Source: Escherichia coli (GTDB lineage Bacteria > Pseudomonadota > Gammaproteobacteria > Enterobacterales > Enterobacteriaceae). From it: 64,000 nt of DNA. This document shows positions 3,575 through 20,737 of the stretch, one piece after another (within the stretch, counting starts at the first letter, position 1; the number at the start of each line of letters is the position of its first letter). The notes under the pieces were generated by a model. It was given only the letters and a program-made list of their open reading frames with translations. It was not told where the DNA came from and searched no databases. The position numbers and the translations under genes are program-made. The DNA is taken from the NCBI RefSeq assembly GCF_013122565.1, contig NZ_CP053258.1; one strand, 5' to 3'.

Positions 3575-4312
3575 ATGCTATATATCTTTCGTCTTATTAT
3601 TACCGTGATTTACAGCATCTTAGTCTGTGTATTCGGCTCCATTTACTGCCTTTTCAGCCCGCGTAACCCGAAACATGTGGCCACCTTTGGGCATATGTTT
3701 GGCCGTCTTGCGCCGCTGTTCGGCCTGAAAGTTGAGTGCCGCAAACCTGCAGACGCTGAAAGCTACGGCAATGCTATCTATATCGCTAACCACCAGAACA
3801 ACTATGACATGGTGACAGCATCGAACATTGTGCAACCGCCGACGGTGACGGTAGGTAAAAAGAGCTTGCTGTGGATCCCCTTCTTCGGGCAGTTGTACTG
3901 GTTAACCGGCAACTTATTGATCGACAGAAACAATCGCACTAAAGCTCACGGCACTATTGCGGAAGTCGTGAATCACTTCAAAAAACGCCGTATTTCCATC
4001 TGGATGTTCCCGGAAGGAACCCGCAGTCGTGGTCGCGGCCTGCTACCGTTCAAAACCGGGGCATTTCACGCGGCAATTGCGGCAGGCGTCCCGATTATTC
4101 CCGTGTGCGTCTCTACAACTTCGAATAAGATTAATCTTAATCGACTGCACAACGGTCTGGTGATTGTCGAAATGCTGCCGCCAGTTGATGTCAGTCAGTA
4201 TGGCAAAGATCAGGTTCGTGAGCTGGCTGCCCATTGTCGTTCGATAATGGAACAAAAAATCGCCGAGCTCGATAAAGAAGTCGCAGAGCGCGAAGCCGCC
4301 GGAAAAGTTTAA
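3575..4312 (+). CDS. plsC: 1-acyl-sn-glycerol-3-phosphate acyltransferase
   Basis: 245 aa; HxxxxD acyltransferase motif (NHQNNYD); FPEGTR motif. Confidence 0.93.
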   Translation: MLYIFRLIITVIYSILVCVFGSIYCLFSPRNPKHVATFGHMFGRLAPLFGLKVECRKPADAESYGNAIYIANHQNNYDMVTASNIVQPPTVTVGKKSLLWIPFFGQLYWLTGNLLIDRNNRTKAHGTIAEVVNHFKKRRISIWMFPEGTRSRGRGLLPFKTGAFHAAIAAGVPIIPVCVSTTSNKINLNRLHNGLVIVEMLPPVDVSQYGKDQVRELAAHCRSIMEQKIAELDKEVAEREAAGKV

Positions 4313-11099: not shown

Positions 11100-11134
11100 A
11101 TATTACTTCAGAATCTATCTCATTAGGCATTTAT

Positions 11135-11491
11135 TTATATGCCGAAATGTATCATGTGTTTATTTTCTCTGATAGCTTTTTGTATTACTTCTGATAAAGA
11201 AAGAAGTAAAGGATCGTGCTGGAATTTTGTATCCGATACAACAATATGAAGAAACTGATTTAATGAATCTGGTGGGATAATGGTGACTCCGTAGCGAGCA
11301 AGCGCATAACCTGGACGATTTAAACTATGATAGAAGGTTTTTATTGTCTGAAGTTGTTCCCACCATTCATCAATATAAATGTCATCATCAATATAAACGC
11401 AATTATATTTTTCAGGTTCATAGTGACCATAATCTTTATCAGTATCAATTTCATCAATAATACCAAATTCGGTTTTAATCATAATGACCAT
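11135..11491 (-). CDS. Hypothetical small acidic protein
   Basis: 118 aa ORF in strongly AT-rich DNA; no recognisable domain; same strand and immediately downstream of the YqhG-like gene. Confidence 0.45.
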   Translation of the reverse strand: MVIMIKTEFGIIDEIDTDKDYGHYEPEKYNCVYIDDDIYIDEWWEQLQTIKTFYHSLNRPGYALARYGVTIIPPDSLNQFLHIVVSDTKFQHDPLLLSLSEVIQKAIRENKHMIHFGI

Positions 11492-11673
11492 GCTTTTTAA
11501 TTGTTATGCAGAAAAATGCCAGGAAAATGATTTAAATTGAATTTTCTGGGGTGATTTGTAATCTTGCTTGTCATATAGATGAGCCATCCAACGAGGTTGT
11601 GCAACATTTAATGAGGGAGACTGGACCAGAACAAGGCTGGGGATTAATATAGAAATGATTAACAATAGTGGCT

Positions 11674-12597
11674 TCATTTTGTCGTTGTTTCCATATTATT
11701 TTTAGCAGATTCCGCCTGTAATTTTTTGATTTCTTGTTCTCTGTGGCGTGCAAACTCTTTACGGGTCGTGACGCGTTCATACAAAGTAATATCGGTAATC
11801 CCCCCACTCCGCATGCCCAAATGACCTCGTATATCCATATCAAATGTTCCAGCTATCCGGACATAATCGCCATTTAGCTGACGAGCACGAGTTAAGGTCA
11901 CGACTGGGTTTGGGAAATCAATATCCAACCACACGCTATCACTTTGAACAAAATTTTCCCAGGATTCTTTATTTAAATATAAGGCGTTGCCTTCAAACTC
12001 AATATTGCCGACACCTTCGACAACCACCTTTTGCAAATGGTATTTTTCTGGCTGCGCAAGTAGTGCCGTCATTGATATCGAATGAGAAAAATGATCGCTT
12101 GAGGGTTCATTAATTACAGCTCTGCGTTTCATTCGCGTATCTTCACGTATTTCTGCCCGTAGACTGTTAGGCATTTCATTACCATCATCGATGTCTTCTA
12201 TTAGCCAGCGATGATTATCATTTTCACGAACCAGCATCAGCCCCAGTAACCGGTGGACATTGGTGCGATTTTGTTTGATAACCAACTGCAACAGTACATG
12301 CGTTCGGCCGCCATTTAGGTGTGTGCTTTGGATTATTTCTGCAGAAACGAAAGTATCATCAACACAGCGACACAAAAGATTATTATTCAGCCAGGGTGTC
12401 ATTTTGCCAGGAGTAGCGCTCATATTACTTCGCAAATCGAGACTGAATTCATCGGTTATTGGTATATCGCCATTACTGGTCAATGGTTGGTACAAACGTT
12501 CTATCGCTTCATTAATCGATTCTTTGCACAACACGTTTCCGCTGAAGCCACAGAACAGCAGAATAAAAAAACAGGTGTGCCAGCGTCGCATAATCAT
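11674..12597 (-). CDS. Secreted protein, distant YqhG (DUF3828-like) paralogue
   Basis: 307 aa; N-terminal signal peptide (FFILLFCGFSGNVLC); weak shared motifs with YqhG (CxC-D, RWLIEDI vs RWVIDDI). Confidence 0.55.
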   Translation of the reverse strand: MIMRRWHTCFFILLFCGFSGNVLCKESINEAIERLYQPLTSNGDIPITDEFSLDLRSNMSATPGKMTPWLNNNLLCRCVDDTFVSAEIIQSTHLNGGRTHVLLQLVIKQNRTNVHRLLGLMLVRENDNHRWLIEDIDDGNEMPNSLRAEIREDTRMKRRAVINEPSSDHFSHSISMTALLAQPEKYHLQKVVVEGVGNIEFEGNALYLNKESWENFVQSDSVWLDIDFPNPVVTLTRARQLNGDYVRIAGTFDMDIRGHLGMRSGGITDITLYERVTTRKEFARHREQEIKKLQAESAKNNMETTTK

Positions 12598-12636
12598 GCC
12601 CTTATGTTTGGCTTTTTCTTAGCAAACAGCCTCTAA

Positions 12637-12669
12637 CCCGGCAACTGACATGCTGCCGGGGATTTTTTT
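12637..12669 (+). terminator. Intrinsic-terminator-like hairpin plus T-run
   Basis: cccggca...tgccggg stem followed by TTTTTTT on the + strand. Confidence 0.45.
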
Positions 12670-12670
12670 A

Positions 12671-12928
12671 TCATTCTGCGTACATACGCATGCAGCGCAG
12701 GCAATCAAAATAGTCCTGTGCATCAAGACGCGTATTGGCTCTGTTAGCTTCGGATTTGGCAGCATAGATTTGTGGGCGTAGTGCTTTCATATCCTGCTCA
12801 AGCCGGGCGATTTTGGCATTTAATGTTTGTACATTGCTCGCCAGTTGATTGACCTTTTGCTCATTGACGCAGCCACTGAGCAAGCAGGTTGCCAGAACAA
12901 CAGCTCCCACGGTGAAAATCGTTTTCAT
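12671..12928 (-). CDS. yqhH: Lpp-like lipoprotein YqhH
   Basis: 85 aa; lipobox LLSGC; coiled-coil Lpp-like sequence. Confidence 0.9.
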
Positions 12929-12978
12929 ATAGTGTTCCCTTTTATTTATTGTTCCGGCTAATTGTTATTTAATTCAGC

Positions 12979-18131: not shown

Positions 18132-19319
18132 TTATACAATCCGCGCAAAACCGGCGTCCAGATCGGCAATCAGATCGTCGACATCTTCCAGACCAATATG
18201 CAGGCGAATCAAGGTCCCGCTAAAATCGATCTCGCCTTGTGGGCGAATGGCGGCGATATGTTCTGGTTGATTTGCCAGGATCAACGATTCATACCCGCCC
18301 CACGAGTAGGCCATGCTGAATAAACTGAAGTTATCCAGATAGTTCGCCAGCTCTTCATCATTGAGTTTTTTCTTAAGCACAAAGGAAAATAGCCCGCTGC
18401 TGCCTGTAAAGTCTCGTTTCCAGAATTCGTGTCCTTTACTGCCAGGCAGGGCAGGGTGGTTAACTCGCGCAACTTGCGGATGTTCTGCCAGCCATTCGGC
18501 CACTTTCAGACTGCTTTCATGATGTTGACGCAAACGCACACCTAATGTGCGCAGGCCACGGCTGGTTATATAGGCGGTATCGGCATCGACCATCTGGCCC
18601 ATCAGATAGGCATTTTCCCGTAGCTGCTCCCAGCAACGGGCATTGCACACGGCAGTGCCAATCATCGCATCTGAATGCCCAACCAGATATTTGGTGGCGG
18701 CCTGAATAGAAACATCGATGCCAAAATCCAGCGCCTTAAACAGCACACCGGCTGCCCAGGTGTTGTCGATCATAATGATGGCATCCGGCACCACACTGCG
18801 CACGGCGGCAACAATCGCCGGAACGTCGTGGACTTCCATAGTGATGGAACCCGGCGATTCCAGAAACACGATTTTAGTGTTTGGCTGCAGATGCTTAACG
18901 ATATCGGCACCAATCAGCGGATCAAACCACGATGTCGTTACGCCCAGTTTGCTGAGGATTTTGCTACAGAAATCCTGACTCGGTTCATAGGCGGTGTTGG
19001 TCATCAACACATGATCGCCCTGTTCGACAAAAGCAAGAATCGAATTAGCAACCGCTGCCGCCCCGCAGGGAAATAGCGCGCAGCCTGCGCCACCTTCCAG
19101 TTCACACATCGCTTGTTGTAAGGAAAAATGGGTTAACGTTCCGCGCCGTCCATAGAACAACTCGCCATTGGCGCGATTGCGCGTCGCGTGCTTTTTGGCT
19201 TCCATACTCTCAAATACCAGCGAAGAAGCGCGCTGAATCACGCTATTTACCGCGCCGAGAGTGTATTTTTTGCTGCGTCCTGCATTCACCAGTTGAGTAT
19301 CAAGCTTTTTGTCCGCCAT
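18132..19319 (-). CDS. metC: Cystathionine beta-lyase (PLP-dependent)
   Basis: 395 aa from Met [15 protein letters not shown] (the ORF-track start at 19454 is upstream). Confidence 0.93.
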
Positions 19320-19338
19320 GTCGGGATTCCTGTTTTTA

Positions 19339-19354
19339 TACGTCTGGATGTCTA
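19339..19354. promoter_or_regulatory. Candidate tandem MetJ boxes upstream of metC
   Basis: tacgtctg-gatgtcta resembles two tandem 8-bp met boxes (consensus AGACGTCT) just upstream of the metC start. Confidence 0.4.
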
Positions 19355-19570
19355 AACTAGCATGAATATTCGCGGGCGCATCCTGAAGAATTGGCATAAA
19401 GCAGAAAATTTTCGCAAATGGCGTGCTGGTGACTTTTTTACTGCGTAAACGCAAGGAAAAGAAAGCAAAGGTACGGCAGTATGCAAATAGTAATGAGAAC
19501 GACTATCAATTCGACGTCGTTTTGATATTATTATGCGCAGATTTTGTGACTTGCGTCCTGGAGATACACA

Positions 19571-20305
19571 GTGGGTAATAATTTAATGCAGACGGACCTT
19601 TCCGTCTGGGGTATGTATCAGCACGCCGATATTGTCGTTAAGTGCGTGATGATTGGGCTTATTTTGGCCTCCGTAGTCACCTGGGCAATCTTCTTCAGTA
19701 AGAGCGTAGAGTTCTTCAATCAGAAGCGTCGCCTTAAGCGCGAGCAGCAACTGCTGGCTGAAGCGCGTTCCTTAAACCAGGCCAACGATATCGCCGCTGA
19801 TTTTGGTAGCAAAAGCTTAAGCCTGCATTTGCTCAATGAAGCGCAGAATGAGCTGGAACTGTCAGAAGGCAGCGACGATAACGAAGGTATTAAAGAACGT
19901 ACCAGCTTCCGTCTGGAGCGTCGGGTCGCCGCAGTAGGTCGTCAAATGGGCCGCGGTAACGGCTATCTGGCAACCATCGGCGCGATTTCGCCGTTCGTTG
20001 GTCTGTTTGGTACGGTCTGGGGCATCATGAACAGCTTTATTGGTATCGCGCAAACGCAGACTACTAACCTGGCAGTCGTTGCGCCGGGTATCGCAGAAGC
20101 TCTGTTAGCAACGGCAATCGGCCTCGTGGCAGCGATTCCTGCGGTCGTTATCTATAACGTATTTGCACGCCAGATTGGCGGCTTTAAAGCGATGCTGGGT
20201 GATGTTGCAGCGCAGGTATTGTTGCTGCAAAGCCGTGACCTGGATCTGGAAGCCAGCGCCGCTGCGCATCCGGTTCGTGTCGCACAAAAATTACGCGCAG
20301 GATAA
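19571..20305 (+). CDS. exbB: Ton system proton-channel protein ExbB
   Basis: 244 aa; GTG start; MGNNLMQTDLSVWGMYQHADIVVKCVMIGLIL. Confidence 0.93.
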   Translation: MGNNLMQTDLSVWGMYQHADIVVKCVMIGLILASVVTWAIFFSKSVEFFNQKRRLKREQQLLAEARSLNQANDIAADFGSKSLSLHLLNEAQNELELSEGSDDNEGIKERTSFRLERRVAAVGRQMGRGNGYLATIGAISPFVGLFGTVWGIMNSFIGIAQTQTTNLAVVAPGIAEALLATAIGLVAAIPAVVIYNVFARQIGGFKAMLGDVAAQVLLLQSRDLDLEASAAAHPVRVAQKLRAG

Positions 20306-20311
20306 TGCCCG

Positions 20312-20737
20312 ATGGCAATGCATCTTAACGAAAACCTCGATGATAACGGCGAAATGCATGATATCAACGTGACGCCGTTTATCGACGTGATGTTGGTTCT
20401 GCTGATTATCTTTATGGTGGCGGCACCGTTAGCGACGGTAGATGTGAAGGTGAACTTGCCTGCTTCTACCAGCACGCCGCAGCCGCGCCCGGAAAAACCG
20501 GTTTATCTGTCGGTGAAGGCAGACAACTCGATGTTTATCGGTAACGATCCGGTCACCGATGAAACAATGATTACGGCGTTGAATGCGTTAACCGAAGGCA
20601 AGAAAGACACCACCATCTTCTTCCGAGCGGATAAAACCGTCGATTACGAGACGTTGATGAAGGTAATGGATACGCTGCATCAGGCGGGTTACCTGAAGAT
20701 AGGTCTGGTCGGCGAAGAAACCGCCAAAGCGAAGTAA
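20312..20737 (+). CDS. exbD: Ton system protein ExbD
   Basis: 141 aa; immediately downstream of exbB. Confidence 0.93.
   Translation: MAMHLNENLDDNGEMHDINVTPFIDVMLVLLIIFMVAAPLATVDVKVNLPASTSTPQPRPEKPVYLSVKADNSMFIGNDPVTDETMITALNALTEGKKDTTIFFRADKTVDYETLMKVMDTLHQAGYLKIGLVGEETAKAK

Follow-up and report, generated by a model that had tools for sequence, protein, structure and literature searches.

MetJ and Fur operators in the divergent metC/exbBD control region of Escherichia coli and their conservation across Enterobacteriaceae

The metC regulatory region was reportedly first described by Belfaiza et al. in 1986. In E. coli, metC belongs to the known MetJ-regulon genes that were used as the training set for the metbox matrix of Augustus & Spicer (2011; BMC Genomics 12:558, PMC3228920). 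Table S1 of that study lists the K-12 site of metC (b3008) as 'agacatccagacgtat', with two boxes, a score of 18.92 bits and a distance of 18 nt, and the enterobacterial metC is marked in it as experimentally tested for repression. According to the same authors, repression by MetJ requires at least two adjacent boxes; MetJ produced a gel shift of the fragment shared by metC and exbB, and exbB showed no MetJ effect in vivo, that is, it was not repressed (Augustus & Spicer 2011, PMC3228920).

On the exbB side, a Fur box was initially put forward by Eick-Helmerich & Braun (1989), according to Chen et al. (2007; NAR 35:6762, PMC2189734). In the exbB promoter, the latter authors identified one strong sequence walker (19.1 bits), at K-12 coordinate 3150076 and −70 from the exbB start, as part of a cluster of three walkers covering 31 bp, and an oligonucleotide with this promoter was gel-shifted in the presence of 150 nM Fur. 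Upstream of exbD, they obtained neither a Fur site score nor a gel shift, and they suggested that exbD is co-transcribed from the exbB promoter; microarray evidence for Fur control of both genes is also cited in their work (Chen et al. 2007, PMC2189734). The published Fur-2 iModulon also includes exbB and exbD. Both operators are already published for exactly the sequence considered here, and the regulation they mediate is textbook knowledge. In this work, we analysed the region between metC and exbB in a 64-kb stretch of E. coli DNA (hereafter, the window), and compared it with the published sites and with the orthologous regions of other Enterobacteriaceae.

The metC/exbB locus and the MetJ operator

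Bases 18900-20000 of the window had matches in 5423 of the 5426 complete E. coli genomes, with 100% identity in several of them, and the matching features are annotated as metC and exbB. The intergenic region from which metC (minus strand) and exbB (plus strand) diverge comprises 251 bases (19320-19570) with a G+C content of 41%, versus 51% across the window. Since all 251 bases are identical to those of K-12 MG1655, the published K-12 data apply directly to this region. The metC gene (cystathionine beta-lyase, 395 aa) occupies positions 18132-19319 on the minus strand, as indicated by the list of open reading frames, the E. coli annotation and its K-12 counterpart b3008, and its start codon is the ATG at 19319-19317. 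A 440-aa metC frame present in the program-made list is an upstream extension to a TTG, and was discarded as not being the gene. On the plus strand, exbB (19571-20305; b3006 in the K-12 annotation) starts with the GTG at 19571, preceded by a GGAG Shine-Dalgarno sequence at 19561-19564, and is followed by exbD (20312-20737; b3005), so that both reading frames together span 19571-20737. These assignments agree with the preliminary description of this DNA, which had named metC and exbB as the flanking genes, and the arrangement metC/exbB/exbD is the same in the K-12 MG1655 record. The genes exbB and exbD form an operon that is controlled by the Fur site located at 19492-19510. In RefSeq, the exbB product of many E. 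coli genomes is called 'tol-pal system-associated acyl-CoA thioesterase', apparently through an erroneous name transfer; for K-12 it is recorded as 'Ton complex subunit ExbB'. An Rfam scan of positions 19200-19700 at E ≤ 1 returned no RNA family.

The metbox matrix and the decision rules of Augustus & Spicer (2011; PMC3228920) were applied unchanged to the whole window. An operator is thus defined as two or more adjoining 8-bp repeats, in phase with each other and related to AGACGTCT; every box must reach one fourth of the consensus score, and their sum must reach the full consensus score, 12.58 bits. An array of this kind, with two in-phase boxes, was observed at 19338-19353 on the minus strand, where the matrix, the K-12 entry and the conservation described below coincide. 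Read on the metC strand, the boxes are AGACATCC (19353-19346) and AGACGTAT (19345-19338), and the distance to the ATG is 18 nt. The octamer at 19338-19345, ATACGTCT, contributes 9.96 bits and that at 19346-19353, GGATGTCT, 8.96 bits, for a total of 18.92 bits against the 12.58 bits required; the adjoining in-phase octamers and the neighbouring frames all gave negative scores. The position of the array also corresponds to that of known operators, which lie in the 5′ region of methionine-pathway genes, usually no more than about 75 bp from the start codon. In the 64 kb, two sites passed the thresholds, compared with 0.7 expected by chance, and a score of at least 18.92 bits did not appear in any of 30 random 64-kb sequences. 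A simpler search for the 16-mer double metbox consensus, with up to three mismatches, gave a single match in the window, the metC site, versus 0.13 expected.

The preliminary description had proposed tandem metboxes at 19339-19354. The strings that it pointed out do mark the real site, which runs from 19338 to 19353, but their register is displaced by 1 nt, and the split into tacgtctg and gatgtcta scored −20.3 and −22.2 bits with the published matrix. The methionine repression of metC that it assumed is well supported, given that the site passes the published thresholds and reproduces the K-12 entry, and that binding of MetJ to this region has been published. Because only two boxes are present and at least two adjacent boxes are required for repression, the metC operator is a minimal one. 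Two metboxes being the minimum for repression, the control of metC by MetJ may be modest.

The second site above the MetJ thresholds (ATATGTTTGGCCGTCT, 13.97 bits) was located at 3693-3708, inside an open reading frame of 245 aa (3575-4312, plus strand). It probably reflects chance, given that 0.7 such sites are expected per 64 kb.

The Fur operator of exbB

To score Fur sites, we built a symmetrised matrix from the 18 other published sites in Table 4 of Chen et al. (2007), excluding that of exbB. These training sites were taken at converted coordinates, each one verified by the distance from the gene start that the authors give, and once aligned they share the register AATGATAAT-N-ATTATCATT. 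With this matrix, the highest score of the 64 kb, 19.95 bits, corresponded to the 9-1-9 inverted repeat AATGAGAAC-G-ACTATCAAT at 19492-19510, and the next best match reached 15.9 bits. The exbB score falls inside the leave-one-out range of the 18 training sites (16.4-29.0 bits), and is expected 0.02 times per random 64 kb. The centre of this Fur box, 19501, lies at −70 from the exbB start codon; by coordinate conversion, position 3150076 of the 2007 K-12 numbering equals 3152054 in NC_000913.3 and 19501 in the window, so the matrix and the published site designate the same base.

The likeness to the Fur consensus was by itself less informative. A plain search with the 7-1-7 consensus, allowing up to three mismatches, gave 6 matches in the window versus 2.66 expected, which is not significant alone; for this reason, the case for Fur rests on the matrix and on conservation, and not on consensus likeness. 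Consensus-only matching was dropped as non-discriminating, and the matrix derived from the published coordinates was used instead. The matches to the classical 19-mer GATAATGATAATCATTATC showed a pattern of their own around the Fur box, with peaks at starts 19483 (10/19), 19489 (13/19) and 19495 (11-12/19), the best register being 19489-19507. These peaks may delimit an extended operator of overlapping sites (19483-19513), and their recurrence every 6 nt agrees with the published cluster of three walkers in 31 bp.

Regarding the Fur-like sequence aaatagtaatgagaacgac (19485-19503) of the preliminary description, it overlaps the real site but is out of register by 4 to 7 nt, and its agreement with GATAATGATAATCATTATC is 5/19, which is the level of chance. 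The iron regulation of exbBD suggested on that basis nevertheless holds, as the operator scores in the same range as proven Fur sites do, and its position is that of the gel-shifted −70 site. The scans and comparisons that had been recommended to evaluate both sites gave positive answers as well: neither the 18.92 bits of MetJ nor the 19.95 bits of Fur are below threshold, the metC site is the entry of Augustus & Spicer (2011) and the exbB site that of Chen et al. (2007), and both are present in all the orthologous regions analysed.

A 24-nt near-palindrome, TATCAATTCGACGTCGTTTTGATA (19504-19527), was also considered as a separate site, and was rejected since its central CGACGTCG is not conserved. 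Elsewhere in the window, secondary matches to the Fur matrix cluster in the stretch 11425-12929. The strongest of them (12911-12929, 15.9 bits) overlaps the start codon of a yqhH-like open reading frame, and is followed by one of 11.6 bits at 12081 and by two of about 8.8 bits, at 11425 and at 12210. The matches in 11425-12929 are probably not functional, considering that they differ by no more than about 1 SD from the top score that chance would give in 64 kb and that the region is A+T-rich. Positions 11100-12660 correspond to an insert of low G+C content (39%) between a ygiQ-like open reading frame and the yqhH-like one (LPP-family, 85 aa). It carries two minus-strand frames of 307 and 118 aa, with no Pfam match. 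Only 128 of the 5426 complete E. coli genomes contain it, and in none does the identity exceed about 97%; this insert is a rare accessory islet.

Conservation, putative promoter elements and proposed regulation

A scan with MetC, retaining one genome per species, yielded 80 loci with 82-98% protein identity, from Escherichia, Citrobacter, Klebsiella, Raoultella, Enterobacter, Kosakonia, Kluyvera, Leclercia, Lelliottia, Pluralibacter, Franconibacter and other genera. In 78 of these loci, exbB is located divergently upstream of metC, and about 250 bp separate the two genes; for one of the two exceptions (L052), the fetched sequence includes only 295 nt upstream. The 79 sequences formed by the window and these 78 species were compared. 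A MetJ site above the published thresholds was present in every one of them (14.4-20.8 bits), at 16-22 nt from the ATG except for one at 37 nt. The Fur site was likewise found in all of them, scoring 19.3 bits or more and with its centre between −69 and −72 relative to the exbB start. The mean column identity to the window was 0.94 for the metboxes and 0.97 for the Fur box, versus 0.65 for the stretch between them. Eighteen of the 19 positions of the Fur box are invariant, and only three variants of it exist, with G, C or T as the central base; more broadly, positions 19485-19489 and 19491-19512 are invariant except for 19501. In the metboxes, nearly every substitution is one that the matrix tolerates, either A/G at the first position of a box or G/A at the fifth. 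The metC metboxes have been reported as absent in about a third of the Enterobacteriales and in most other orders (Augustus & Spicer 2011, PMC3228920), taxa that lie outside the present sample.

The alignment also revealed two conserved TGnTAnnnT motifs. On the metC strand, the motif TGcTAGTTT (19362-19354, minus strand) abuts the metboxes and is conserved in 78 of the 79 sequences, with all four bases occurring at n. The exbB strand carries TGaTATTAT (19523-19531, plus strand), which is conserved in the 79 sequences and varies only at n and at position 4 of the hexamer. This suggests that these motifs are the extended −10 promoters of metC and exbB, respectively. A generic scan for sigma-70 −35/−10 pairs and terminators in 19250-19650 found none, as expected for the promoters, since extended −10 promoters are not modelled by it. 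From these motifs we infer the start sites, and hence the exact steric mechanism of repression. The metboxes would extend over the putative metC start site, predicted near 19346-19349, with a leader of about 28 nt, and the Fur box would be at about −47 to −29 of the putative exbB start, predicted near 19537-19540, over the −35 region. The location of a Fur box over the −35 region is the usual layout for repression by Fur.

Taken together, these data make us highly confident that 19320-19570 is the divergent control region of metC and exbBD, with two independent and already characterised repressor operators. The identity, the scores and the conservation of the sites come directly from this analysis, and the in vitro binding and the regulon membership from the papers cited. 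In the regulation that we propose, the two tandem metboxes (19338-19353) would be bound cooperatively by two MetJ dimers carrying S-adenosylmethionine (SAM). The boxes start right downstream of the putative extended −10 (19362-19354) and would cover the expected metC start, about 28 nt before the ATG; when methionine and SAM are plentiful, MetJ-SAM bound to them would block RNA polymerase at metC. On the other side, Fe2+-Fur would bind the 9-1-9 box (19492-19510) and the putative weaker overlapping sites that flank it with a 6-nt spacing (19483-19513), and with sufficient iron, Fur placed over the −35 region of the predicted promoter would repress exbBD. Each operator is expected to affect its own gene only.

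Three other explanations were weighed against this proposal. The one that survives best, although we consider it very improbable, is that the conserved sequences are core promoter or 5′-UTR elements, and that the repressors bind them weakly or incidentally in vivo. The −35 of the putative exbB promoter would coincide with the right half of the Fur box, the metboxes cover the putative metC start site and the early transcript, and the promoter elements are conserved too; promoter elements, rather than contacts with the repressors, could be behind part of the conservation. However, the Fur site is conserved symmetrically, in both 9-nt arms and with only the centre free, unlike a 6-nt −35 hexamer, and the changes in the metboxes are confined to the two positions where the matrix tolerates them. 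This pattern of substitutions fits repressor motifs better than generic promoter conservation; in addition, both the membership of metC in the MetJ regulon and the Fur-dependent expression of exbB have been published.

Even less probable is a cross-regulation that would couple methionine and iron supply, with MetJ also acting on exbBD, Fur also acting on metC, or both. The two genes have a single 251-bp region in common, and this arrangement is kept in 78 of 80 species. Against this idea, MetJ had no effect on exbB in vivo (Augustus & Spicer 2011, PMC3228920), the putative metC start is some 150 bp downstream of the Fur box centre, too far for occlusion, and metC is not named as a Fur target in the Fur-regulon literature examined. 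Finally, the possibility that both sites are chance resemblances with no regulatory role in a region of lower G+C content than the window, where A+T-rich DNA yields an excess of Fur-like matches and where 12 of 100 shuffles contain at least one 16-mer metbox match, is effectively refuted by the rarity of the two matrix scores in random sequence, the persistence of both sites in the 79 sequences while the adjoining bases diverge, and the published gel shifts for MetJ and Fur. We therefore retain the reading of two independent operators.

Other conserved sequences and comparison with known systems

Between the two operators, the block TTTTTACTGCGTAAaCGCAAGGAAA (19435-19459) stands out by a column identity of about 0.9 in the window and the 78 species, versus 0.2-0.5 for its flanks. 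It holds an inverted repeat, TTTAC-tgc-GTAAA, and a direct repeat, GTAAA-N5-GGAAA; base 19449 is G in most genera and A in the window. No regulator was found for this block in the literature searched, and the K-12 tonB upstream region does not contain a block resembling it. Our tentative suggestion, which we hold to be possible but doubtful, is that it serves as operator for a further factor that targets exbBD or metC. Candidates include the source of an FNR ChIP-chip peak, the factor behind the stronger anaerobic repression of exbB, or a Cpx-type site of the form GTAAA-N5-GKAAA. The FNR peak was reported for exbB/metC by Grainger et al. (2007), with the FNR motif not given; it maps to K-12 3150195 (2007 coordinates), about position 19382 of the window, and exbB has been reported as more strongly repressed anaerobically. 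By eye, there is no convincing match to TTGAT-N4-ATCAA in 19320-19570, and the sites of FNR (TTGAT-N4-ATCAA), MetR (TGAA-N5-TTCA), PurR, PhoP and CRP, as well as the marbox, did not fit convincingly when they were compared in the same way with the block and the exbB leader. We set aside the sequence GGAAAagaaaGCAAA (19455-19469), predicted with a CpxR matrix in a published study; it touches only the right edge of the block and is poorly conserved, and the published qRT-PCR is not clearly CpxR-dependent.

In the putative exbB leader (19532-19570), the sequences CAGATTTTGTGAyTT and GTCCTGGAGA are almost invariant, and the mean identity over 19511-19570 is 0.88, more than a Shine-Dalgarno sequence alone would need. 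Judging from this conservation, the leader may include an element for post-transcriptional control.

Of the two operators, one ties methionine biosynthesis to the levels of SAM and the other ties the energisation of the TonB system to the iron supply. What our analysis adds is the base-exact correction of the coordinates and the near-invariance of both operators across genera of the Enterobacteriaceae, together with the putative extended −10 promoters and the pointer to the block at 19435-19459; its import beyond annotation is small.

Concerning the relation with other systems, tonB is the partner gene of exbB in the same energy-transducing complex, and it is likewise repressed by Fur. The sequence ATGCAAATAGTAAT (19481-19494), just to the left of the exbB Fur box, is identical at 13 of 14 positions to ATGCAAATAGCAAT from the K-12 tonB upstream region. 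The local alignment of both regions, with a score of 12, is within the noise of shuffled sequences (10.5 ± 1.5) and not significant, and they have no other common block above the shuffle level; the 13/14 match would be compatible with a Fur protection that reaches leftwards at exbB. With respect to the K-12 exbB Fur cluster (Chen et al. 2007), the operator described here has the same centre, with 19.95 bits versus the published 19.1 bits; the published model comprises three overlapping walkers over 31 bp, whereas our smaller matrix gives one positive score. In the case of metC, the operator is the same as the K-12 MetJ operator in all respects compared: the sequence agacatccagacgtat, the two boxes, the score of 18.92 bits and the distance of 18 nt from the ATG.
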